A stretch of DNA of 14,831 bases from Thermofilaceae archaeon (GCA_038727095.1 JAVYWK010000038.1:1-14831); one strand, 5' to 3'; shown: positions 1 to 14,831, counted from the stretch's first letter. A program made the numbers and translations. The notes: generated by a model not told the origin, from the sequence alone.

Positions 1-1036
1 CATCGTACTCGAGCTTCTGAACCTCAACCTCGAGCTTCAGCCCAAGCCTAGGTGACGCGGCGATGGTGCGGTCGACGCGTTCAGCCAGGATGTAGCTCCG
101 GCGCAGCGCGGCTAGAACCCTCTCGATCCTCTTGAGAGTGCTTCGCTCGGGCTCGCCGCCCACCGCGACGCTGTCCACAACGGAGGCGAGGGGCCCCGCT
201 AGCGCCGCGATCGCGTACAACCCGCCACCGCTCAAGCTCTTCACCGTCGCAGCAGCATCCCCGAAGACGAACAGCCTGCCGCGCCCCAGGGCGCGGGGGT
301 AACCCCTCAGCACGTAACCACCCCTCAAACCCCCCTCGAGCTCCGCTTCAACGCCCGCCTGCTTCCTCAACAGCACAGCAGCGCGGCGAAGAAGACCCCA
401 CGCCTCCCGTCTTCCCGCTACAACGCCCAGCGAGCAGCGTTTCTCGTCAACCGGGGCCGCCCAGGCGAAGCCCCCCAGGAGCTTCGGCGAGTAGACTACG
501 TAGAGTGTGCTGCTGGGGAGCCCGGTCGCGCGCGCGGAGGCGTGGACCCCGAGCCTCTCCTCCACGTGCGGCGAAAGGTTGCACTGCCTCGCCAGAATCG
601 GCGGGTAGCCCTCAGCGATGACTGCCGCATCGTACACACGCTCGCCACCGCACCACCGCAGCCTCACGCAGTCCCTCAACGGCTCAGCACGGTGCACGCG
701 CGTTCTCTCCCTGAGCTCAACCCCCCTTGCCTCGAGGAGCTCAGCCAGCCTCTCTTCGTGAGCCCTCCTATCGATCTTGTACGCGAAGACCCCCCTCGAG
801 GTGATGGAGACCCTGAGAGCGAGCTCTGGCACGGCCAGCTCCATCGAATCGTACGCCTGCTCCACGAACCTCCACCCTTCGGGCAGCTTAGCCAGGGTGT
901 CCGCCGACACGATGCCGGGGCACCGCCCCCCGCGCAAGCCCGGCCTGCCGCTCTCAAAGACCACCACGTTACTTCTCAGGTTCAACGCGAGGAGAAGGCC
1001 GGCAACGCCTGCCCCAACTACCGCGACGTCACCCAT
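1..1036 (-). CDS. FAD-dependent oxidoreductase, geranylgeranyl reductase family (3' end runs off the window)
   Basis: Missing from the ORF track because its stop lies outside the window. ATG at 1036 gives MGDVAVVGAGVAGLLLA (Rossmann GxGxxG), then YKIDRRAHEE, GGFAWAAP and LFVFGDAAATVKSLSGGGL, the same frame reading EYD at the window edge. Overlaps the kptA stop by 8 nt. Confidence 0.88.
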   Translation of the reverse strand, partial: MGDVAVVGAGVAGLLLALNLRSNVVVFESGRPGLRGGRCPGIVSADTLAKLPEGWRFVEQAYDSMELAVPELALRVSITSRGVFAYKIDRRAHEERLAELLEARGVELRERTRVHRAEPLRDCVRLRWCGGERVYDAAVIAEGYPPILARQCNLSPHVEERLGVHASARATGLPSSTLYVVYSPKLLGGFAWAAPVDEKRCSLGVVAGRREAWGLLRRAAVLLRKQAGVEAELEGGLRGGYVLRGYPRALGRGRLFVFGDAAATVKSLSGGGLYAIAALAGPLASVVDSVAVGGEPERSTLKRIERVLAALRRSYILAERVDRTIAASPRLGLKLEVEVQKLEYD

Positions 1037-1712
1037 GCTGAGCCCCCTCCGGGCCACCCGTCGTTGGGGCTGAGTTCCTGCAAAGCCGGATGACATCCAC
1101 GATGGAATCGGGGGGTACGTAGGGCGCAACGTAGACGTGCTTGCCCGCATGGAAGAGCTTGACCCTCCCTTTCATCGTCTGAGGGTCGATGACCAGCACA
1201 ACAGGGTCGCTGTGGATCCTGGCTCTAGCCGCGGCATCCTCGAAGACGGCCGTGAGGTGGACGAACCTCCTCCTCATGGGCAGAATACCCCGCCTCATGA
1301 TCGAGTCGAGTTTGGATAGGGAAGTGCCGTGGTAGAGGAGAGCGTTCGGATACGCTTCCGGGTAACGGATCCTCACGGGAACGCTGTGACCGTAGCGGGC
1401 CCTAATCCTACCCCCTGAGATCTCGAAGCGACCCTTCGGGTCCGCCTGCGCAAGCGCCACGATGTGCTCTACGCGGACCCACTCGTACCCCTCCCTTTTC
1501 CTCACCGCCTCCGCCAACGCCTCCAGGCTCACGAACCCCTCCTTATCGAGCGTGAGGCCCAACTTCCCGGGTAAGTGCCGAAGCACCCCGCTGATCAGCT
1601 TGCTCAACCTAACCCTATCCGCGGCGCGTATCAGCAGCTCCGTTGCTACGCCGCAGTGCACGCTCTCCTCAACGGGAGCACCGCAGATACGGCACTTCCG
1701 CAGGTCCTTCAC
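1029..1712 (-). CDS. kptA: RNA 2'-phosphotransferase (Tpt1/KptA family)
   Basis: LSKLISGVLRH, DPKGRFE, IRARYGHS, LYHGTS and VHLT motifs. N-terminal CRIC...HCG putative Zn ribbon. GGAGG just upstream of the GTG start. Confidence 0.95.
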   Translation of the reverse strand: MKDLRKCRICGAPVEESVHCGVATELLIRAADRVRLSKLISGVLRHLPGKLGLTLDKEGFVSLEALAEAVRKREGYEWVRVEHIVALAQADPKGRFEISGGRIRARYGHSVPVRIRYPEAYPNALLYHGTSLSKLDSIMRRGILPMRRRFVHLTAVFEDAAARARIHSDPVVLVIDPQTMKGRVKLFHAGKHVYVAPYVPPDSIVDVIRLCRNSAPTTGGPEGAQHG

Positions 1713-1723
1713 CAGCCTCCAGC

Positions 1724-1748
1724 AAAGTTGAACTAAAGTTGTTTAAAA
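1724..1748. promoter_or_regulatory. Probable bidirectional archaeal TATA box between kptA and the peptidase
   Basis: TTTAAAA at 1742-1748 lies ~23 nt before GTG 1771 (+) and ~30 nt before GTG 1712 (-). AAAGTTG occurs at 1724-1730 and 1735-1741. Confidence 0.55.
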
Positions 1749-1770
1749 GGTGCCTTCCCGTGGTAGGTCC

Positions 1771-3609
1771 GTGGAGCGCGCTGACGCTACCGACGAGCTC
1801 GTCGAGCTGGAGGACCTCTCCAGCGCTCGGACTGCAGACGTTGTTCGCAGCTTCAACTGGGAGGTTGAAGAGATGCTAAGCGCTGAAGCCGCGCGCCACT
1901 ACGAGAGGTTGCGGGAGTACGCGTGCGCCCCCCGAGTCGTCAGCGCGGCTCTGCTGAGGGAGGGGGTGGCGTTGCTCTACAAGGGCCTCGAGGATGAAGT
2001 GGTGCTGCTCCGCCGGGATGGGGGGCGAGCGGTGCTGCTGAAGCCCCGCGAGGGCGAGGTCTTCACCTCGCTGAGCCGTGTCAAGGGCTCCAACGATTGG
2101 ATAGCGGTTCGAGCCTCCATCGAGGGATCCGATGAGGGGCGCACGTACATCATCGACGCAGGGACGGGAGTTATCCTCCACGCGATCGAAGGTGTTGCGC
2201 ACGGCTTCTGCAGCGTTGGCGGCTCACTGGTGTACGTTAGGAGCTACAGGAGGGTTCCGCCACCTGACGGCGGTGAAAGACCCACGGATCGGCTCGTCAC
2301 CCTCGAAGATGTCAGAGAGAGAGTGGTTTGGGGTTGCGGAGTCCTCGGCGCTGGCGAGTACATCGGGTATGTCGCCCCCTCCCCGGATTGCAGGATGCTC
2401 GCTCTCACGGTGCACCGCGGCTGGGCCCGCTCGAAGCTTTACTTGCTGAACGCTGGGTCGTGGGAGGGGGAGCTGGTCGAAGAGGGGGACTACCAGATCG
2501 AGTTGGCCGGCTGGTTGGGGAGTGAGCTAGCGTACGTTAGAGCCAGACCCGAGGGTGATGAGCTGCACATCGGCGGAGCGAGCATACGCCTTGAGAGGCC
2601 TGTTCAAGCGGCCCTAGCGTCGGGCTCGAGGCTCCTGCTCATCGACCTGATCGACGCCAGGCACAGGGTCAGGATCAACTGCGGTGAGGCGGGGAGCTGG
2701 GTGGAGGTTGAGCTGCCCGTCGAGCCCGTATCGGTCGTGAGCCTGGATGCGATGGACGGGCGCTTCCTGATCGTAGCTACAGGGTTTTCGCACAGGCACC
2801 TTGTGGCCCTCATCGATGGAGGGGTTAGAGTGCTGGAGGAGAGCGCGGCCGTGCAGGGCCTACTGGTTGAGGATATCTGGCTGCGCAGCGGCGGCGTCAG
2901 AGTGCACGGTTTCCTAGTGGCGAAGGGAGGCCGGCCCAAGGCGATCCTGCTATACGGCTACGGAGGCTTCGGTGTGAGCCTTGCGCCAGCCTACTCGGCG
3001 TTCTTCCACCACCTGCTCGAGCTCGGCTACGCAATCGCGGTTGTGAACGCTAGAGGGGGCCGGGAGGAGGGCGAGCAGTGGCACCGGGCGGGGATGCTCG
3101 AGGCCAAGCTGAACACATTCCAGGACTTCGCCGCTTTCGCTCGATTCTTCAAGAGCCTGGGCTTCAAGGTGGCCGGTTACGGCTCCAGCAACGGCGGTTT
3201 GACGGTGGCCGTTGTCGCCACGAAGTGGCCTGAGCTCCTTGACGCCGCGCTCGTGGGCTACCCGGTGCTCGACATGCTCAGATACCACCTGCTCTACGTC
3301 GGCCGCTACTGGATACCCGAGTACGGCGACCCCGACGACCCGAAGATGCGCGAGGTGCTTCTCAGCTACAGCCCCTACCACAACATTCCCAGGGGCAAGC
3401 GGATGCCCCCCACGCTCCTCTTCACCGGGTTCAACGACGACAGAGTTCACCCCGCTCACGCAATCAAGTTCGCTGTGAAAGCGAGGCAGCTGGGCCACCC
3501 CGTCTACCTGCGCGTTGAGACGAGGAGCGGGCACTCGGGGGCTCGAACGGAGATCAGGGCGCTCGAGGCAGCCTACCTTACGGCCTTTCTCGAGAGGTTC
3601 CTAGCGTAA
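1771..3609 (+). CDS. Prolyl oligopeptidase family serine peptidase (S9A)
   Basis: LYGYGGF, NARGGREEGEQWH, catalytic GSSNGG (Ser), DDRVHPAH (Asp) and SGH (His). Beta-propeller-sized N-terminal region. GTG 1771 is preferred over 1750 on TATA spacing; both are in frame. Confidence 0.93.
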   Translation: MERADATDELVELEDLSSARTADVVRSFNWEVEEMLSAEAARHYERLREYACAPRVVSAALLREGVALLYKGLEDEVVLLRRDGGRAVLLKPREGEVFTSLSRVKGSNDWIAVRASIEGSDEGRTYIIDAGTGVILHAIEGVAHGFCSVGGSLVYVRSYRRVPPPDGGERPTDRLVTLEDVRERVVWGCGVLGAGEYIGYVAPSPDCRMLALTVHRGWARSKLYLLNAGSWEGELVEEGDYQIELAGWLGSELAYVRARPEGDELHIGGASIRLERPVQAALASGSRLLLIDLIDARHRVRINCGEAGSWVEVELPVEPVSVVSLDAMDGRFLIVATGFSHRHLVALIDGGVRVLEESAAVQGLLVEDIWLRSGGVRVHGFLVAKGGRPKAILLYGYGGFGVSLAPAYSAFFHHLLELGYAIAVVNARGGREEGEQWHRAGMLEAKLNTFQDFAAFARFFKSLGFKVAGYGSSNGGLTVAVVATKWPELLDAALVGYPVLDMLRYHLLYVGRYWIPEYGDPDDPKMREVLLSYSPYHNIPRGKRMPPTLLFTGFNDDRVHPAHAIKFAVKARQLGHPVYLRVETRSGHSGARTEIRALEAAYLTAFLERFLA

Positions 3610-3640: not shown

Positions 3641-4204
3641 GTGGGTAGGAAGGCTCTAGCCTTAGTGACGCTCGCTTTCGCGGCAGGGCTGTTAGCCGGA
3701 TTGAACGCACCCCGGGGGCTCGCCGACCAGATCATGGAGCTGGCGAAGGAGCTGGTCCAGCGCGTGTACACCGAAGACCCCTTCGAGCTCGCCCTCCGGA
3801 TACTCCTCAACAACGCGAGGGTCGTAGCCCTCCTCGCAGTCCTCAGCCCACTCGTCGTTGCCCCAGCCTTGGTGGTTTTCGCAAACGGCTTCATCCTTGG
3901 CGTCGCACTGGAGTTCGCAGCGGGCAGGGCCTCGTGGTGGGCGGCCATCGCGGCCGTGGCACCCCACGGAGTCCTCGAAATACCAGCGCTGCTCTACGCT
4001 GCAGCCGCCTGCACTTCCTTCGGCGTCGCGCTGTGGCGGAAGATCCTCGGCAGAAGGGGCACACCCTGGCGGAAGCTCCTAGCGCTACTGCTGAAACCCC
4101 TCGCGATTTCACTGCTCCTGCTTGCTGCAGCCGCGATCATCGAGGCCTTCGTAACGCCCGCCCTCCTCAAGCTGATCGTAGGGGCGAGGCCGCTACCAGC
4201 TTAA
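3641..4204 (+). CDS. Stage II sporulation protein M (SpoIIM)-like membrane protein
   Basis: Several hydrophobic segments with ILLNN, NGFILG, PHGVLEIPA and AAIIEAFVTP family motifs. Confidence 0.9.
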   Translation: MGRKALALVTLAFAAGLLAGLNAPRGLADQIMELAKELVQRVYTEDPFELALRILLNNARVVALLAVLSPLVVAPALVVFANGFILGVALEFAAGRASWWAAIAAVAPHGVLEIPALLYAAAACTSFGVALWRKILGRRGTPWRKLLALLLKPLAISLLLLAAAAIIEAFVTPALLKLIVGARPLPA

Positions 4205-4310
4205 CCCCCATACGGCTCAGCCTTAGCGGGAAGCTTCTCGCACATTCGCCCGGTTGAGCCGCGGGAGAGCCCAGCCAGGGTAGAGCCTGGGGAACAGCGA
4301 AGGGGGGAGA

Positions 4311-4330
4311 TTAAAGAAAAGGGGAAGTTT
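4311..4330 (-). terminator. Oligo-U archaeal terminator candidate
   Basis: Minus strand reads CTTCCCCTTTTCTTTAA about 20-40 nt after the TGA at 4350-4352. Confidence 0.4.
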
Positions 4331-4349
4331 GCGCGAGGATCAGCGGCTC

Positions 4350-4417
4350 TCAGTACGGTAATCCGTAGTGCTTGACCACGATTTCGGCTATCCCTAGTTT
4401 CTCAAGGATCCTTATGG
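4350..4417 (-). pseudogene. Probable C-terminal remnant of the acetamidase/formamidase gene
   Basis: Reads IRILEKLGIAEIVVKHYGLPY*, resembling from memory the C-terminus of archaeal acetamidase/formamidase proteins. Same strand as the N-terminal fragment at 7540-8054, and followed by a U-rich terminator. Confidence 0.6.
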
Positions 4418-4712
4418 TTCCGCGCCGGGTCATTCCCCCCTTCATGGGCTTTGGCCTCTGAGGGCCCGCCCCCCGGCCTCCCCAGCCCCGTTTCGGGGCC
4501 GTGGACGACCGGAGCGGGCGTCATGGGGTCGGCCGCTCAAGGGCGGCCTACTCGCCCGCCTTCCAGCGCACCGTCACCGGTGCGCCGAACGGCGGGGTCG
4601 GTATGCCCCTCGGTCTGCGCGCGGAAGCCCCCGGGCACTTGGCCGAGCGCGAAGCCCGGCCGCGTCCCGGGAACGGGGCCCGTGGGTTTCAGGGTGCGGG
4701 GATCCCGGGGGC
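4418..4712 (-). ncRNA. Candidate TnpB omegaRNA/reRNA (right end)
   Basis: Directly 3' of the tnpB stop. Stems at 4704-4712/4627-4635 (9 bp), 4641-4661, 4555-4596 (GUGA tetraloop), 4531-4548 and 4464-4519. Mismatches resolve as G-U pairs on the minus (tnpB sense) strand. Confidence 0.65.
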
Positions 4713-6170
4713 CTAGGCCCCAGGGGTTGGTGGTGCGGCGAACTTAGGTGGTGGCGCTGAGCCTAGGAGATCCGTGGGGTGGTTGCGCAACCACCCCCGA
4801 AGCTCGCTGACCAGCCACGGTAGCCCCCCAGCAACGGCGCTGAACGATGAAGCATAGTCTCGATTCCAGGCGATCCCGCATCGCGTACAGTGGAAGTAGC
4901 TCGGCCTCTTCCTCCTCTCCCCCTCGGGGAAGTAGGGCTCGCCCCGCTCCCCGCAGAGGGGGCAGTACTTCCCTGAGATGTGTACCTCTTTACAATAACC
5001 ACCCTCGTACCTCACCGTCACCCGCAGCCTCCTCGCGATCCTGAGGATCGCGTTCTGCCAAGGCTTCCCCTTCTGGCTCTCGGGGGAGGGCTTGTCCACA
5101 AGGACAATCACCCTCCCCCCGTACCTTCTCGCCAGGGCCCTGACAATTTCGGATAGTTTACGTTCTTGCGCCTCTACCCGGGCCTTGTGGGCTTTGTGAA
5201 TGGTGCGTACGATGTCTCTTGCGTTGCTCGGAAGGGGCGGCAGCTCCGGGAGGAGCTCCCGGAGCCTCTCGTAAGACTCGCGTAGGCGGGCGTAGGTAAG
5301 CGGCGACTGGCGCCCCCTGTGTACGTTGGTACTTAGTGCTGCAAAGCTTTGCAGCAGCTTTATCAGCCTCCATGATTTTCGTGAAAACTTGATCCTTTGG
5401 CGTAGAACCCTCTTCACCCCGTCGCTGACCTCGAAGGCGAGCATTGTGATCCCATGGCGGGCGTTGATGTCCACCCCCACGACCACGAACGGTCGTGGGA
5501 GGCGGACGTCCCTGAAGTCCGTGCATTCTTCGCGCACCACCACCCACCACCTCGGCGGGTTGCGGCGCGCCACCAGGCGAAGTTCACCGCTCTGGCGGAG
5601 GAAGAGGGTGAATACTGGCGGGGGAGCCAGCTCCAGCTCCCCCCTCAGCGCCTCGCAGAGGCTTTGGGGTAGCGGTACGATGATTGTCCAGATCCTTAGG
5701 ACGCAGTGGTCAAGATCGACGATACAGACTGCGCTGTGGGAACCGTACTCCCGCCCACCCCACCGGAACCGAACCGGCAAAGGTATCGGTGGAAGCCTCT
5801 CCGGCGGCGTCCGCTTCCCCGCCTTGAGGCGGTTAGAGAAGGCCGCTGTGCGCATCCTCTTCCATTCCTCTTTGTAGTACAGCAGTCCCTTCAAAACGCC
5901 CCCGCCCTCCAAAATCGCTTTAACAATCATAGTGTAAAGTTCTTTTAGTCTCTCCCGGAGTACCGCATTCGTTTCAATCCTAAAGACCCTGTAGCCCCCA
6001 GGGGCCTTCTTGTTTTTACGCGAGGCATGGGGGGGCCGCAGCGTCCCCTCCCGGGTTTCACCGGGCAGAGCCCGGATCCCCCCGGGAGAGGTGGGCGCAG
6101 AAGAGCCCTGGCGTACAGCCCTCCGCCCCCCCTCGGAGGTTCGGGGTCCCGACACCATCCGGACCCCCAT
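4713..6170 (-). CDS. tnpB: Divergent TnpB-like RNA-guided endonuclease (RuvC + Zn ribbon); start uncertain
   Basis: RuvC-I VVGVDIN, RuvC-II position VLVDKP, Zn ribbon CPLC...CTRC and RuvC-III NRDYA. The first ~48 codons lie in GC-rich hairpins and look non-protein-like, so the true start is probably near 6028 (out of frame) or 5930. Confidence 0.8.
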   Translation of the reverse strand: MGVRMVSGPRTSEGGRRAVRQGSSAPTSPGGIRALPGETREGTLRPPHASRKNKKAPGGYRVFRIETNAVLRERLKELYTMIVKAILEGGGVLKGLLYYKEEWKRMRTAAFSNRLKAGKRTPPERLPPIPLPVRFRWGGREYGSHSAVCIVDLDHCVLRIWTIIVPLPQSLCEALRGELELAPPPVFTLFLRQSGELRLVARRNPPRWWVVVREECTDFRDVRLPRPFVVVGVDINARHGITMLAFEVSDGVKRVLRQRIKFSRKSWRLIKLLQSFAALSTNVHRGRQSPLTYARLRESYERLRELLPELPPLPSNARDIVRTIHKAHKARVEAQERKLSEIVRALARRYGGRVIVLVDKPSPESQKGKPWQNAILRIARRLRVTVRYEGGYCKEVHISGKYCPLCGERGEPYFPEGERRKRPSYFHCTRCGIAWNRDYASSFSAVAGGLPWLVSELRGWLRNHPTDLLGSAPPPKFAAPPTPGA

Positions 6171-6275
6171 CCGCTCCCTCTGCTACACACCCCTCCGCGG
6201 GAGCTTCATCATGGGCGGAGGGATGCGGGGGGCCCGGACGGCCGAAACCCCAAACCCCCGCGGGAGGCGGCGCTG
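6116..6275 (-). other. ~160-nt rod-like hairpin upstream of tnpB (left end or 5' RNA)
   Basis: Nested stems 6270-6262/6123-6131, 6259-6247/6135-6147 (13 bp) and 6240-6228/6156-6168 (13 bp). Several pairs work only as G-U on the minus strand. The apex contains AUGAUGA. Confidence 0.7.
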
Positions 6276-6501
6276 AACCCGTCGGCAGCCCCAGCTACGT
6301 TGAGCGCGGTACTTCTCGGCAGCTTTGAGCGAGCTCGAGCAGCGTTGAGCAGCGCGGAAGTGGAGTCCGGCAGCCAAGCGGAGCATCAGAGTCGAAGCAT
6401 CGGAGTTAAGCGCGCGAGGTGAGGGAAGCAGCAGGAGCCGCAGCCTCAAACGAGCCGAAGGCGGTTGGAGCGGAACGGCCCCAATCCCGGGCAGCCTGTG
6501 A

Positions 6502-6990
6502 GCCCCGCGCGCCGGCGCGCCCCCCAGTACCGCTGGAAGCATTAACAGTGCGGTAGACCGCCCCCGGGGAGCAGGGGTGCGGCCCTTTACGCCGGCCCCC
6601 GCGCTAGGCGGCGACCCCCAGAGGATGGATGGGGGCCCCACGCCAGTGGGAGCGCAGCCCGGGGCCGGCCGTTATAGGCTGCGCCCCGCGAGGGCTAGAG
6701 GCCCAGCTTTGCGGGTTTAAGCCTGTATCCCTCCCCTCCAGCAGCCTGCCTGTAGGCTCTCGGCCTGCAGGCGGGCTGCCCCTCCACAGTTGTAGGGCGC
6801 TCGGCCGCTACAACTGCTTCACAGGCACCCCCCTACAAGGGGGACCCGCCTTTTTGGGGCGGAGGGTTGGAGAAGGGAGGGTTACAGGCTGATTAAAAGA
6901 CTGGGCCTCCAGAATCCCCCCAGTTGCAAGCCGCGCGCGGGGCGGGAAGCCCGCTTTAGCGTCCATCCGCTTCCAGTGCCGCTCTAGTGC
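6502..6990 (+). ncRNA. Unclassified large structured non-coding element
   Basis: Perfect 11-bp closing stem 6502-6512/6933-6943. Stems 6698-6706/6901-6909 and 6720-6740/6868-6890, a 17-bp hairpin 6741-6779 and a 9-bp hairpin 6787-6816. G-U pairs favour the + strand. No credible ORF. Confidence 0.55.
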
Positions 6991-7023
6991 CGCGATAGTG
7001 TCCTGCTGTCTTCGTGTTCTACC

Positions 7024-7093
7024 GCCCCCAAACCCCTCTTGTCCACCGAGCCTCAGCGGGGTTTGGGGGTTTTGTTTGCTCGGCCCGGTGGAC
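7024..7093. other. H-type pseudoknot candidate
   Basis: 7024-7036 pairs with 7058-7070 (13 bp). The loop segment 7041-7052 pairs with 7082-7093 (11 of 12). Confidence 0.5.
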
Positions 7094-7162
7094 GCACCTG
7101 TTAGGCTTATGGAGTGCATGTATTTATTCCTAACTCCAGTTTGACGCTGTGAGGGGGATGGG

Positions 7163-7387
7163 ATGTGCACCACGGCTTGCAGTCTGAGCTTCTTCACGCT
7201 GCCGGGTTGCACGGAGGGGTTCAGGGTGAGCTTGAGGTTGAGCAACATCACTGAGGCTCTTGAAGCGTTCATGATGGCTGGGTTGAGGCCGGGGAGCATT
7301 GCGTTCACGCGCGGGGAGGGGAGAGCGGTCTTAATCCAGCTGAGAGGGGGGTGGCTGAAGGCGTATGTAGCCGCAGCCCTAGAGTGA
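7163..7387 (+). CDS. Small hypothetical protein (74 aa)
   Basis: GAGGGGG SD-like sequence at 7151-7157, AT-rich TATTTATT at 7121-7128, host-like codons, and a pyrimidine-rich tract after the stop. No family recognised. Confidence 0.5.
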   Translation: MCTTACSLSFFTLPGCTEGFRVSLRLSNITEALEAFMMAGLRPGSIAFTRGEGRAVLIQLRGGWLKAYVAAALE

Positions 7388-7539
7388 GAGGAAGCGGGGT
7401 GCTTCATTCCATTTCTACTCTTCTTTCCCCGCTTGACCCCCAAAGCGCGGGGGAGCGGTGGGGCGCGGCAGGAAGGTGAAGAGGAGCAGCCAGAGGCGCG
7501 CGACCGAAGAAGACGGGAGCGCTTGAGCGAAAATATGAA

Positions 7540-8054
7540 CAAGTGGGCTCCCTCGGCGATCCTTCTGGCGAGCTCCCGGTTCACCGTAAGGCCCACCCTG
7601 CGGGCTTCGTCGAAGACCATCGTGTAACCGTGAACCATCCTGAAGGGCGACGCGGGGGACCCGCACCTCTTGCACCTCACAGCTTCCTCGCCGGTGCCGG
7701 AAACCTCGAACTCAGGCCAAGGCTCCCTGCAGACCGGGCACCTCTTCGCAACGTAGGGGTCGCCCACGAACGCTCCGTCCACGGGCCTATCGACGCCCGA
7801 CGAGGAGGCTTTGGAGAGAACCCTCAGGCTCTCGAAGCGCAGCACCACCGCGTCTCCGACCCTCGCCCCCTCAACGGCCACCGGCACGTTCACCTCGTGC
7901 CCATCCCTCAGCGTCGGGGTGAGCATCGGACCCCAGCAGCCGGGCGTCGTGATGAACCTGATCCTACCACCGTCGGCGACGGACCCAGCATTCTCGTGTG
8001 GGGACCTATGATGCCGTTTGTGTAAACATCGTTAAAAACCTCCGATTCAACCAT
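7540..8054 (-). pseudogene. Acetamidase/formamidase family protein, N-terminal part (frameshifted and truncated)
   Basis: GGTGA RBS and ATG 8054 give MVESEVFNDVYTNGIIGPHTRMLG. A 1-nt deletion at ~7981 is followed by VADGGRIRFITTPGCWGPMLTPTLRDGHEVNVPVAVEGARVGDAV, then CPVC/CKRC. Family-like sequence stops near 7540. Confidence 0.85.
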
Positions 8055-8106
8055 GCGCTTCACCAGAAGTTTAGGGTGCTGGTAAAAGAAGATTACCGTG
8101 ATGCTT

Positions 8107-8859
8107 CTAGGGCAGCTTAGCCACATCGACGGGTGCGCAGGGCACCGGGAGGACCAGCTTAACGCCTTCGCACTCGAGAGCCACCGGGTCCAGGTAGAAG
8201 TGGAAGGGCATCAGGTAATCGACGCCAGCCTCAACGGCGATGCGAACCGCGTCGCGGAGCGTCGAGTGGCCGTGCTCGTGCGCCAGCTCCTCGCTCGCCA
8301 ATCCTCCACCAACCTCGTGCACCAGCAGCTTGCAGCCCCTCGCCAGCTCGACTATCAATCGGCAGGGCCTCGTGTCACCGCTGAAAGCGACGGCCAAGCC
8401 GCCCACCTCCACCCTGAAGGCGAGGGAGGGAACGGTGTGGTCTGCAGCGACCGCGTAAACCCTCACCCCTCCCTCCTCAAAGGCGAGAGCTGGGGCAGCG
8501 GGAGGCTCGAGAAGGTTGAGCTCAAGCACCTCCAGGTAGTGCGGGATCCCAACCGAGGCGAAGAGCGAGCGCAAATCAATGTCGGAGGGGCCGATCACCC
8601 TCAACCTCGCACCAGAGCGCCTAGCGTGCATCGCGAGCGTCGGCAAACCCAGAGCATGGTCCCCGTGCTTGTGCGTGACGAGCACCAAGTCGAGATCCGT
8701 AACCTCAAACCCACACCTCCTCAGCGCAGCGTAAACCCCTTCGCCAGCGTCAACCAGCAGCATCAGCCCCCCAGCCTCCACCAGCAGCGAAGGAGGCCCC
8801 AACGCGGGGTCAGAAACCCAGCCCCCACAGCCCAGAGGCCTCACAATCAACTTGGCCAC
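8107..8859 (-). CDS. MBL-fold metallo-hydrolase, RNase Z-like
   Basis: LVDAGEG, THKHGDH (HxHxDH), ADHTVPS, FSGDTRP, LLVHE, HGHST and PFHF motifs. Confidence 0.9.
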   Translation of the reverse strand: MAKLIVRPLGCGGWVSDPALGPPSLLVEAGGLMLLVDAGEGVYAALRRCGFEVTDLDLVLVTHKHGDHALGLPTLAMHARRSGARLRVIGPSDIDLRSLFASVGIPHYLEVLELNLLEPPAAPALAFEEGGVRVYAVAADHTVPSLAFRVEVGGLAVAFSGDTRPCRLIVELARGCKLLVHEVGGGLASEELAHEHGHSTLRDAVRIAVEAGVDYLMPFHFYLDPVALECEGVKLVLPVPCAPVDVAKLP

Positions 8860-8879
8860 GAGCTCTCACCGCTCCAGCG

Positions 8880-8955
8880 TATAAGCGGCTTTCTATTTGC
8901 CATTTTTGCTGAAAGTCCTGAATTTAATTCAAAAATGGCGCAAAACATAAATACC
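8880..8955. promoter_or_regulatory. Divergent promoter region with palindromic operator candidates
   Basis: TTATA (-) at 8880-8884 and ATAAATA (+) at 8947-8953. Perfect inverted repeat GCCATTTTTG 8899-8908 / CAAAAATGGC 8930-8939. Palindrome TGAATT-T-AATTCA at 8919-8931. Confidence 0.6.
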
Positions 8956-8976
8956 TTATACCCTATAACCTTTTTG

Positions 8977-9150
8977 ATGAAGAGCTGGACCGAAACTATC
9001 AAAACTATATTGAGGCTGTACAAATGGAGACTTCTGGCACTTGCCTTAATGCTAGTACTTCTCACAATTACGAGAGATTACGTGATCGCCACTAAGTCCG
9101 CTGAGCCACCGCCAGGTAGCATTCCTACCCCAAATATAGATCCTCTATAA
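8977..9150 (+). CDS. 57-aa signal-peptide/single-TM small protein
   Basis: MKSWTETIKTILRLYKWRLLALALMLVLLTITRDYVIATKSAEPPPGSIPTPNIDPL. The ATG lies 24 nt after a TATA box (leaderless). It is the plausible coding tail of the shadow ORF 8098-9150. Confidence 0.65.
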   Translation: MKSWTETIKTILRLYKWRLLALALMLVLLTITRDYVIATKSAEPPPGSIPTPNIDPL

Positions 9151-9164
9151 GTTCTTAAATTTAG

Positions 9165-10148
9165 GTGGGAAGATTGATTCCTTTTTTTAAATGTGATGAG
9201 ATTTCATGGAATATTATAAAAGCTATTGAAACTTCCTTATCAATCACCGATATTTCCAAGAAAAGCAATGTAAATATTTCCACAGTCTCCAGGATTCTTT
9301 CTGAGATAAGGCAGGGAAGCAAAGGTGTAGCGGTACGTTTTGAGATAATTATGGAAAAGGCCGGTATTATTAATGTCGCAACTATAAGCAAAAGATACAT
9401 GAAGCGGCTTCCTTTTCTTCAATCTTTCAGGGTGCTTCGGCTTCTTGGCCGCGAACTTTACCTCTATACAGCCCTGATTCCCGGCGAAAAAATGATCAGC
9501 GAATGGCTTTCAAACTTTGAGGAAGGATCACTAACAGTAAGAGGATTAGAGCGCAGATTTTGGAGCCCCTCTTCTCCCTTGACGGTTTATAGTGGAGAAT
9601 TTGTTCAAGGTTGTCCTGAGCAAATAGCTACGGAGGAGCGTGATCCTCCAAAGCTACCCAAGGTAGAAGCTACAATGGATGAGATCGACGTATTGATCTA
9701 TGGTGAAAAATCTAAGTGGCCTTTCATCTCATTACGCGAGATAGCTAGAAGTAGTGAAAAGTTTGTGGGTAGAAAGGTTTCACATCAGGTGCTGAGTTGG
9801 CACTTCAGGAATCATTTACTTAAACTGTGGAATCGAAACAGGGTCTGGCTTTACGCCGATCTTAATAAGATACCGTACCGCCTGCTCTACTTAGAGGGGC
9901 GTGATGCGCCCGCCGTGGCTAGGGCTCTTGTTCAGCTACCCTGGTTCCACACGGCCTATATCGACTTTGACAGGGCTATCGTCTCGGGTCAGCCGCCCTG
10001 CGAATCGATGCTTCCACTTTACAAGCAGCTTAACGAGCTGGACGTGAATACGCTGGAGTTTATAATGGAGCCGAGCCTGATGAGGGTGGTCCCGATCTTC
10101 AACTTGCTAATGTCGATTACGAAGAAGCTGGAGGTGACGGCCGAATGA
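9165..10148 (+). CDS. Tandem winged-HTH (Lrp/AsnC-like) transcriptional regulator
   Basis: HTH SITDISKKSNVNISTVSRIL near the N-terminus. A second unit MDEIDVLI...SLREIA...VSHQVLSWHFRNHL starts the C-terminal half. Confidence 0.75.
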   Translation: MGRLIPFFKCDEISWNIIKAIETSLSITDISKKSNVNISTVSRILSEIRQGSKGVAVRFEIIMEKAGIINVATISKRYMKRLPFLQSFRVLRLLGRELYLYTALIPGEKMISEWLSNFEEGSLTVRGLERRFWSPSSPLTVYSGEFVQGCPEQIATEERDPPKLPKVEATMDEIDVLIYGEKSKWPFISLREIARSSEKFVGRKVSHQVLSWHFRNHLLKLWNRNRVWLYADLNKIPYRLLYLEGRDAPAVARALVQLPWFHTAYIDFDRAIVSGQPPCESMLPLYKQLNELDVNTLEFIMEPSLMRVVPIFNLLMSITKKLEVTAE

Positions 10149-13556: not shown

Positions 13557-14831
13557 CTAGTAGCCGTAGGCCCAGGGCACCTCCTTTGCCCAGCCGAGAG
13601 CCCTCTGGACGGCCGCTCTCCAGCCCCTGTAGAGGCGCTCTCGCGTCTCAGGGTCCATCCTCGGCTCAAACACGCGCTCAGCCCTCCAGTTCCTCCGCAC
13701 GTCGTCGAGGCTGCTCCAGAAGCCGACCGCGAGGCCGGCCAGGTAGGCTGCGCCGAGCGAAGTGGTCTCGAAGACCACCGGCCTCACGACCCTGACGTTC
13801 AGGATGTCGGCTTGGAACTGGAGGAGGAAGTCGCTCCTCGCGGCCCCGCCGTCGGCCTTGAGGACGGTGATCTCTCTGCCCGTGTCGGCCTTCATAGCCT
13901 CCACAACGTCCCTAGTGAGGTACGCGATGGCTTCCAGAGCCGCGCGGGCGATGTGCTTCCGCTCCGTCCCCCTCGTGATCCCGATGATCAAACCCCTCGC
14001 GTAGTGGTCCCAGTAGGGCGCGCCCAGCCCGACGAAGGCCGGGACGAAGTAGACTCCGCCCGTATCGGCCGCCGCCTCTGCGAGCGGGTTGATCTCGGCT
14101 GAAACCTCGATGATCTTGAGGCCGTCTCGCAGCCACTGTATCGCGGCGCCGGTGATGAAGATGCTCCCCTCCAGCGCGTACACGGCCCTGCGGGGCTCCA
14201 TCGAGTAGAAGACGGTTGTGAGCAACCCGTGCCTCGACGGCACGGGGCTCGCGCCCGTGTTCATCAGGAGGAAGTTCCCGGTCCCGTAGGTGCACTTCAC
14301 GTCACCCACGTCGAAGCCCGCCTGGCCGAAGAGAGCCGCCTGCTGGTCGCCCGCGTCCCCCGTCACAGGCACTGAGGCCCCGCCCAGGAGCGCTGAAACC
14401 TCGGGGCCCGTGTACCCGTACACCTCCCTATCGCTGGAGGGTCTGGGCAGTGGGAGCATCTCCTGCGGTATGCGGCCCTGGAGCTCGAGTAGTTCGCTGT
14501 CCCAGTCGAGCTTCCTGATGTTGAAGAGCATCGTCCTCGAAGCGTTGCTGTAATCGGTCACGTGCGCCCCACCGCGCTCGGGGGTCATGACGTCCCTGGA
14601 GCCGCGCGTCAGGTTCCACACGATCCACGTGTCGATCGTGCCGAACACGAGCTCCCCCTTCTCGGCCCTCTCCCGAGCCCCCGGGACGTTGTCTAGGATC
14701 CACCAGAGCTTCGTGCTGGAGAAGTAGCAGTCAGGGACGAGCCCGCTCTTCTCCCTGATCAACTCGAAGCAGCAATCCCTCAAGCGGTCGACCTGCGGAG
14801 CCGTCCTGCGATCCTGCCACACGATCGCGTT
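13557..14831 (-). CDS. glpK: Glycerol kinase (5' end outside the window)
   Basis: [69 protein letters not shown] and ADGGA. Confidence 0.97.

Follow-up and report, generated by a model that had tools for sequence, protein, structure and literature searches.

A probable tnpB-only IS200/IS605-like element of a Thermofilaceae archaeon with a structured right end, a conserved non-coding insert and a truncated gene of predicted clamp fold

Introduction

Cas12 descends from TnpB elements, from which compact genome editors are also drawn. In IS605 elements the transposase gene tnpA is divergent from tnpB, and IS200 elements carry tnpA only. Copies that lack a transposase are very numerous. According to PMC10691335, solo tnpB elements that have a guide RNA at the right end are the rule, and most such elements are without a transposase of their own. 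Here we analyzed a stretch of DNA of 14,831 nt from a Thermofilaceae archaeon (GCA_038727095.1, JAVYWK010000038.1:1-14831), hereafter the window, which is an entire 14.8-kb contig of a genome that is 92% complete and has about 65% G+C. A preliminary description of this DNA had claimed an RNA-rich island around a solo divergent tnpB gene, with four separate structured non-coding modules (module 1, 4418-4712; module 2, 6116-6275; module 3, 6502-6990; module 4, 7024-7093), an orphan open reading frame (ORF) of 74 aa and no transposase. We found that the island (4418-7550) is a single 3133-bp mobile element and not four modules around a gene.

In its core the island is ordinary. The closest described systems are the IS1341-type, tnpB-only IS200/IS605 elements with an OMEGA RNA (short for obligate mobile element-guided activity), or omegaRNA, such as ISDra2 TnpB with its right-end element RNA (TnpB-reRNA; PDB 8exa and 8h1j, both among the Foldseek hits described below). 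Like them, the island has a single gene for a RuvC and zinc-ribbon protein, a sense-strand structure at or after the tnpB 3' end that runs up to the end of the element, no terminal inverted repeats, and a conserved short motif at the left flank, and it occurs in multiple copies with short derivatives lacking tnpB. Like most of them, it has no transposase of its own. Unlike them, it encodes a protein that is barely recognizable by sequence and has aspartate at the RuvC-II position, has about 1.4 kb upstream of tnpB rather than a short left end, and has ends far better conserved than its protein, with no Y1 TnpA in the 7 genomes of its TnpB clade. The island is unusual in an insert that appears to be constrained, in a companion gene of predicted clamp fold (here denoted orfX), and in the lack of a known transposase in its hosts. 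We regard it as likely that the island is one non-autonomous tnpB-only IS200/IS605 (OMEGA) insertion sequence, read from the minus strand, with an insert and a stump of orfX. Our full-text literature search found no paper joining TnpB and Thermofilum, and no paper on a clamp-like gene in such elements was found among the titles and abstract openings of the papers listed.

Results

Boundaries and copies of the element

The comparison set comprised 23 Thermofilaceae genomes, including the one that holds the window, and 119 other genomes of the class. A blastn search of 4200-7800 against its own genome identified a repeated unit at 4416-7556. In a sister genome (G014), an intact orthologue of the host gene (locus L039 on contig C66) matches only the flanks of this unit: positions 1-258 of the locus correspond to window 4160-4417 (99.2%) and positions 985-2035 to window 7551-8600 (98.9%). 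This sets the limits of the element at 4418-7550, nearly the coordinates first proposed for the island. Positions 259-984 of the locus have no counterpart in the window. The missing 726 bp of the host gene exactly adjoin the right end of the element, which indicates that the insertion was followed or accompanied by an adjacent deletion, or that two insertions recombined. Because of this deletion, target duplication could not be cleanly judged. In three hot-spring metagenome runs, DNA contigs part from the window at 7551; in two of these runs, X1 and X5, contigs part from it at 4417.

The same genome contains a second full copy (C3:56393-59526, 82% identity), a variant copy (C3:11961-14737), partial copies at four contig ends (C34, C41, C25, and C52), and short forms of about 560 bp with both ends and the small ORF only (C21:15904-16459 and C1:102324-101751). 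The flanking DNA differs from copy to copy. A short form was also present in one metagenome run as a joint from 4487 to 7220. A joint from 6914 to 4415 in RNA library X17 could not be interpreted.

A putative target motif lies beside the left end at 7551-7556 (CCTCGG on the plus strand, CCGAGG on the tnpB strand) and is host DNA, as the empty site in G014 shows. A CYGARGG-like motif was found at all five left-end junctions in the own genome. Six copies in a further genome (G020) end at differing points and gave no consensus for the left-end boundary or the target motif. No terminal inverted repeats were found among the 25 longest of 49 inverted repeats. As in IS200/IS605 elements, the copies carry no end-on inverted repeats and are inserted 3' of a short motif beside the left end.

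Table 1 Features of the element and its host gene in the window.
Feature	Position	Strand	Basis or detail
Whole mobile element	4418-7550	-	tnpB-only, IS200/IS605-like; repeated unit and empty-site comparison
Host gene 3' remnant, to stop codon	4350-4417	-	99.2% to L039 1-258
Right end, candidate omegaRNA scaffold	4418-4640	-	Conserved core of module 1 (4418-4712)
tnpB, 485 aa	4713-6170	-	Alignments, AlphaFold, Foldseek
Leader hairpin	6120-6275	-	Module 2; tnpB ATGs at 6170 and 6158 in 3' arm
Variable purine-rich spacer, unstructured	6276-6479		61-75% identity with gaps between two full copies
Conserved non-coding insert, modules 3 and 4	6480-7147		Own-genome copies only
Truncated orfX, ORF of 74 aa	7148-7387	+	ATG 7163; homology from 7148; stop 7142-7144 closes frame upstream
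Left end	7388-7550	-	Kept in C3a, C52, C21, and C1
Host gene 5' part, acetamidase/formamidase family	7551-7926	-	Pfam FmdA_AmdA E 2e-8; 98.9% to G014 gene

The ends of the element

The right end is a conserved and covarying structure that is specific to the tnpB strand. The last ~220 nt downstream of tnpB are kept at 8 places in the own genome, and blastn with the right end gave 4 matches in G014 and 16 in G020; it is kept even beside TnpBs that are only 33-40% identical to that of the window. In an alignment of 12 right-end sequences on the tnpB strand, 42 pairs in 7 helices were identified, with 92.4% of cells pairing, compensatory changes in 7 of the 42 pairs, and G.U in 47 out of 490 cells on the tnpB strand. 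None of 500 shuffles reached any of the five measures, and slid controls paired at 34-49%. Contigs of relatives from RNA libraries span 4464-4604. From these comparisons, the structure is most likely the scaffold of an omegaRNA that guides TnpB, with a guide that would derive from the flanking DNA below 4418. The right end may also serve as a transposition end. Module 1 would then be the expected right-end RNA and not an additional module, as had been thought.

Folding was compared with dinucleotide shuffles (40 or 100 per stretch) on both strands. In a scan of the plus strand in 120-nt segments, those outside the island had a mean z of -0.10 with a standard deviation of 1.13 (n=192). Two coding stretches used as controls gave z -1.3 to +0.7, and a stretch internal to tnpB (5000-5294) was also above shuffles (z -4.4 on the plus and -3.0 on the minus strand). 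Module 1 gave z -2.2 on the plus and -5.1 on the minus strand, with 0 of 40 shuffles as good on the minus strand. In IS200/IS605 elements, Y1 TnpA recognizes imperfect hairpins near both ends. Here the right end is rich in hairpins, and the left end (7388-7550) folds no better than shuffles (z -0.15 and -1.0).

A profile of the right end detected no further end within the island, and the insert described below is not independently multi-copy. Both findings speak against a nest of related non-autonomous elements, which had been one of the two readings offered for the island.

At loci L049-L054 of G020, where TnpB is only 33-40% identical to that of the window, the profile still detected the right end (E 1e-33 to 1e-50), and the 120 nt proximal to the left end are 87-96% identical to a copy used as the query (L013). 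Conservation of the ends at these loci is much higher than that of the gene.

A search of the whole window against Rfam 15 with cmscan (E<=1) gave three weak matches, none of them in modules 2-4. The only one within the island was a 27-nt SorX-like hairpin at 4641-4667 (E 0.8, 19.8 bits vs 46.6). Curated RNA families, including group I introns as in IStrons, gave no usable covariance-model match in the island, and a tRNA scan found none.

TnpB

Alignments and a predicted model indicate that the tnpB product is a divergent, probably active nuclease of the TnpB/Cas12 fold from a small Thermofilaceae clade. The protein has a split RuvC-like nuclease with D234, D359, and D438, a CxxC...CxxC zinc-ribbon (TNB) insert, as expected of a TnpB, and an N-terminal low-complexity insertion of about 40 aa. 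The alignments have the motifs GVDxN and NRD, four cysteines that do not vary, and a VDxP that hardly varies. The aspartate of VDxP is at the RuvC-II position, which is usually glutamate in TnpB; aspartate is found there across the clade.

The Pfam TNB domain was below threshold in the window protein (21.6 bits vs a cut-off of 26.3), which had no match in NCBIfam, and 11 of 23 relatives scanned passed the Pfam cut-off. In the AlphaFold model (predicted local distance difference test, pLDDT, 70), residues 1-59 are disordered. The best 50 PDB hits listed by Foldseek were all Cas12, TnpB, or Fanzor (best E 2.4e-7; template-modeling score, TM, low at 0.18-0.34). The sub-threshold domain and these hits bear out the claim of a real and divergent TnpB, which is also solo, as first described.

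The family is small: a set of 5.8 billion sequences contains 9 clusters of it, every one from Thermofilum or Thermofilaceae metagenome-assembled genomes (MAGs), and a profile search gave 79 matches among 1.84 billion representatives. The clade was found in 7 of the 23 Thermofilaceae genomes (6 matches in G020, 16 in G018, and 13 in G013). The own genome has four full tnpB genes, and the products of the others are 75%, 34%, and 31.5% identical to the window protein. The insert described below is absent from the closest TnpB relatives; one of the genomes without it has a TnpB with 69% identity to that of the window. A search for related loci in genome contigs with the TnpB alignment gave 45 pattern matches, none of which was confirmed.

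A second strong hairpin (6040-6095, minus strand) lies within the low-complexity insertion of the protein. Copies C3a and C41 and the MAG protein P0008 share this feature, and in the model that protein stretch is disordered.

The non-coding insert

Modules 3 and 4, proposed as separate, form one contiguous conserved block. The insert extends over about 0.87 kb (6276-7147) in a position where the G020 elements hold only ~100-180 nt between the left end and tnpB, and it contains a composite hairpin (6676-6945), interleaved repeats (7025-7094), and a TATA-like AT-rich box (7121-7128). About 1.4 kb lies upstream of tnpB, and the amount of structured non-coding DNA is far above what tnpB elements usually carry, as the preliminary description had noted. 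Module 3 gave z -7.4 on the plus and -5.2 on the minus strand (0 of 100 shuffles each), and 6676-7144 gave z -6.5 and -6.05. The signal of module 3 comes from 6676-6945, where 120-nt segments at 6661 and 6721 had z -6.9 and -8.7; the stretch 6476-6680 alone was at chance (z +0.29). Module 4 taken alone did not rise above chance either (z -1.1 and -1.3; 14 of 100 shuffles folded as well).

The repeats at 7025-7094 are invariant among copies. Their interleaved complements (7025-7039 with 7055-7069 and ~7042-7052 with 7079-7094) could form a pseudoknot or alternative hairpins.

Bases 6480-7147 are non-coding: the indels between copies measure 1, 7, 8, and 11 nt, none a multiple of three, and no Pfam match was found. 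The candidate ORFs 6183-6641 (minus), 6027-6422 (plus), and 6629-6892 (plus) had no match in Pfam, and hidden coding was rejected on account of the indels. An ORF of 372 aa at 6808-7926 (minus) was also rejected as a gene: it is the 5' part of the host gene running on through the element, and in the ORF74 part it is an antisense frame sharing third positions.

Copies of the insert were found in C3a (93%), C3b (91%), C25 (91%, partial), C41, and C52 (partial). It was absent from the 22 other Thermofilaceae genomes and had no real match in the 119 genomes of the class, in which the sole match to 6480-7150 was 22 nt long (E 0.008). An exact-pattern search for a 21-nt core of the insert gave no match in a metagenome contig collection, a search that could miss diverged copies. 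The genomes without the insert include that of the 69%-identical TnpB, which argues that it is not a conserved partner of the TnpB clade; the preliminary description's reading of a TnpB system with extra RNAs is not supported.

In all four copies with assembled context (C38, C3a, C3b, and C41) the insert adjoins tnpB. It is present beside three tnpB subfamilies, the proteins of which are only 31-34% identical to one another; across copies in which the TnpBs are 75%, 34%, and 31.5% identical to the window protein, the insert is 93%, 77%, and 91% identical. The Jukes-Cantor divergence of 6676-6945 is 0.035-0.042, compared with a synonymous divergence (dS) of 0.33-0.39 in the adjacent ORF74, so the insert changes about ninefold more slowly than the synonymous sites of the neighboring ORF. 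This argues for a constraint on 6676-6945 at the nucleotide level. Compensatory change was found in 1 of 205 predicted pairs (6796/6806).

The AT-rich box lies about 35 nt before the ORF74 ATG. Both are retained in 4 copies, in one of which the start codon is GTG. RNA library X17 has no contig over 6720-7550, and its elements are relatives that possibly lack the insert.

The copy of the insert on C25 (L037, G000:C25:24000-27312, positions 979-3019) abuts an ORF of 112 aa and a gene for a 583-aa HerA/DUF87-like P-loop ATPase. This region is possibly an integrated plasmid- or virus-like element.

The leader hairpin

Module 2 gave z -4.3 on the plus and -7.1 on the minus strand (0 of 100 shuffles each). 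It forms a predicted hairpin of about 150 nt, which copies C3a and C41 retain; of its 84 predicted pairs, 4 are compensatory among three sequences. The tnpB ATG (6168-6170) is inside it, and module 2 is therefore partly coding. The non-coding nature ascribed to the modules stands for the insert, with its frame-breaking indels, but not for all of module 2; modules 2-4 have no Rfam match. The spacer next to the hairpin (6276-6501) folds at chance (z +1.5 and 0.05).

Judged by eye, the leader is a homologue of the short leader close to the left end in the G020 elements, in which a TATA-like CATAAATAG lies about 45 nt before the ATG; the same spot here reads CATGATGAAG. In IS200, mRNA secondary structure helps suppress transposition (PMC4513863). 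As with the 5' leader of IS200 tnpA, where mRNA structure limits expression of the transposase, the element has a leader with a stable stem-loop over the start of its gene. The two differ in that the gene here is tnpB and not tnpA, the host is archaeal, and the predicted hairpin is much longer. By analogy, the leader hairpin probably keeps tnpB translation low.

orfX

The small ORF is not an orphan. Longer relatives show ORF74 to be the C-terminal stump (~80 residues) of orfX, a gene for a protein of about 204 aa with a predicted sliding-clamp fold. ORF74 has 9 copies in the own genome, whose indels are in frame, and Thermofilaceae MAGs contain 34 clusters of relatives; its dN/dS is 0.14-0.60. 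Longer relatives of 196-205 aa are intact and multi-copy in Thermofilum MAGs. No N-terminal half of orfX was found elsewhere in the island, where tblastn homology begins only at 7148.

The AlphaFold model of a relative (P0102, 130 aa; pLDDT 78.6, predicted TM score 0.73) has two beta-alpha-beta-beta-beta repeats, as in a clamp-fold domain, of which the window ORF covers only the second half. VIA-align gave Z 8.0-10.9 for the top 38 chains, 37 of which are clamps or processivity factors, and then about 4.5; rank 38 is a de novo design protein (Z 8.0). Foldseek gave TM 0.5-0.62 to clamps for the C-terminal domain of orfX, and the best score in the ESM Atlas for ORF74 (0.82) was not informative. 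The C-terminal domain thus resembles PCNA, the DnaN beta clamp, T4 gp45, and herpesvirus UL42/UL44 in predicted fold. It differs from them in that orfX has no sequence similarity to Pfam families or PDB chains, is only about 204 aa long when whole (~80 residues in the window copy), and is a gene of a mobile element.

Fragments of orfX and the right end were found in the same 3 of the 23 genomes. Elements consisting of a right end, orfX, and a left end recur without tnpB, which places orfX in the slot that tnpA has in IS605 and IS200. One such element in G020 (L058, G020:C1:396850-400170, positions 866-1890) is about 1 kb long, with a right end, an intact orfX of 204 aa, and a left-end-like tail, and its ends are shared with the tnpB elements of G020 at 74-94% identity. 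The layout is alike in that orfX is near the left end and divergent from tnpB, and in that orfX-only elements share the ends. It is different in the predicted sliding-clamp fold of orfX, which is not HUH/Y1, and no HUH motif was found in orfX.

Mobility genes

No transposase was found, in agreement with the preliminary description: neither Y1_Tnp (PF01797) nor Resolvase (PF00239, serine recombinase) had a match in the 92%-complete own genome. Y1_Tnp was found in 1 of the 23 family genomes (G016), which is itself without this TnpB clade, and hence in none of the 7 genomes carrying the clade, two of which are single-contig and 99% complete. Resolvase was found in one of these 7 (G004). The three genomes that hold these ends have neither a Y1 transposase nor a serine recombinase. 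Possession of a Y1 TnpA, or of a serine recombinase as in IS607, which the element lacks, defines autonomy and not membership of the family. Because no known transposase is present, movement would depend on a factor supplied in trans.

Discussion

The island, its coordinates, and the absence of a transposase stand as first described, and the orphan ORF, the four separate modules, and a wholly non-coding module 2 do not. What had been described as a tnpB gene amid modules is one repeated element with a candidate right-end RNA and a truncated gene of predicted clamp fold. In the explanation that we favor, the element was inserted beside a CCGAGG-like motif in a formamidase-like gene. The right-end RNA would guide the TnpB nuclease, and the leader hairpin over the tnpB start would dampen translation, as the mRNA structure of IS200 tnpA does. 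The insert was probably passed among the three tnpB subfamilies by recombination through the conserved sequences flanking it. Our best guess for its role is an expression module, with its TATA-like box before the new start of ORF74. It may also replace a degenerate tnpB promoter and thereby give a long structured leader. Mobility would rely on a factor supplied in trans.

Several observations weigh against parts of this explanation. The structure at the right end could instead be a signal for transposition as single-stranded DNA, and the left end (z about 0) gives no clear sign of the subterminal hairpins typical of the family. The contigs from RNA libraries are those of relatives at 90-99% identity and may include DNA; they cover 6119-6719, and none of them covers 6720-7550. 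TnpB has D rather than E at RuvC-II, and its activity is judged from sequence. The insert shows almost no covariation (1/205), so that an RNA role for it is unproven. A similar appearance of constraint could come from recent gene conversion. The promoters are AT-rich boxes read by eye. The target motif is drawn from 5 junctions, one with an empty site, and with 726 bp of the host gene deleted, the insertion was not a simple one.

That modules 2-4 are additional dedicated RNAs acting with TnpB, in a multi-RNA system as the preliminary description had suggested, we consider highly improbable. The insert is beside tnpB in all four resolvable copies and does not occur in the short derivatives that lack tnpB. 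It is better conserved than tnpB, its folding far exceeds that of shuffles, and it is covered by RNA-library contigs of relatives in part (6119-6719 for the region as a whole). A co-evolved protein-RNA pair is nevertheless hard to reconcile with an insert common to TnpBs that are 31-34% identical, with its absence from the other family and class genomes, including that of the 69%-identical TnpB, in which only ~100-180 nt lie upstream of tnpB, and with the single compensatory pair. It is also unlikely that the insert, or 6676-7144, is the remnant of a foreign insertion that split orfX and has no present function in the element. Such a remnant would explain the sharp boundary at 7144-7147, where orfX homology starts next to a stop codon, and the long imperfect inverted repeat at 6676-6945. 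The copy at the C25 end diverges exactly after 7144 and abuts an ORF beside the HerA/DUF87-like ATPase gene, although C25 may simply hold the upstream end that the C41 copy lacks, with contigs that break inside the repeat. Metagenome runs X2 and X5 contain contigs that match 6676-7098 and 6676-7144, and the X5 contig bears sequence absent from the window on both sides. Against a foreign insertion, there is no independent multi-copy family in the genome, no right-end-like sequence within the insert, no relative in the 119 class genomes, and no exact match to the 21-nt core in the metagenome contigs. The divergence, about ninefold below that of neighboring synonymous sites, is unlike that of a dead relic.

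Recent gene conversion alone would make the insert a neutral block whose folds come from G+C-rich inverted repeats, which we hold to be decidedly unlikely. The block is flanked by the leader and orfX, which are common to all copies and are possible recombination anchors, the mosaic of identities points to recombination, and covariation is almost absent. Yet the similar tract in C3b (6421-7387) spans ORF74 and shows both a synonymous divergence of 0.37 there and a divergence of 0.042 in 6676-6945, which makes a single conversion tract unlikely, and z values of -6 to -8.7 are far outside the background of the window. In a further and bolder reading, the missing mobility machinery would be orfX itself or something that orfX recruits, with ORF74 as a selected, re-promoted half and the insert as the expression module of both ORF74 and tnpB. 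We think this very doubtful; if true, it would point to a new kind of transposition protein or to a clamp of the element that hijacks replication, and any involvement of orfX in movement would be new transposon biology.

On our preferred explanation of a single tnpB-only element, the divergent thermophilic TnpB, with a defined candidate scaffold and a candidate target motif (CCGAGG), is a directly testable nuclease. Ends common to TnpBs that are ~31-40% identical and to siblings with the clamp gene point to a mobility factor acting in trans. About 0.7 kb of non-coding DNA is kept better than the adjacent coding sequence, and if the insert is a promoter and leader module, it shows how elements rebuild expression after damage.

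Elsewhere in the window, the G+C of 8850-9750 is 0.37-0.45, compared with ~0.65 in the rest, and this region is possibly foreign DNA. An ORF at 8098-9150 (plus) has no Pfam hit and one at 9165-10148 (plus) has a weak hit to HTH_23. At 14147-14214 (plus), inside or antisense to a long ORF, a weak C/D-box-like match to snoZ6 was found (21.4 bits vs a gathering score of 35, E 0.51).

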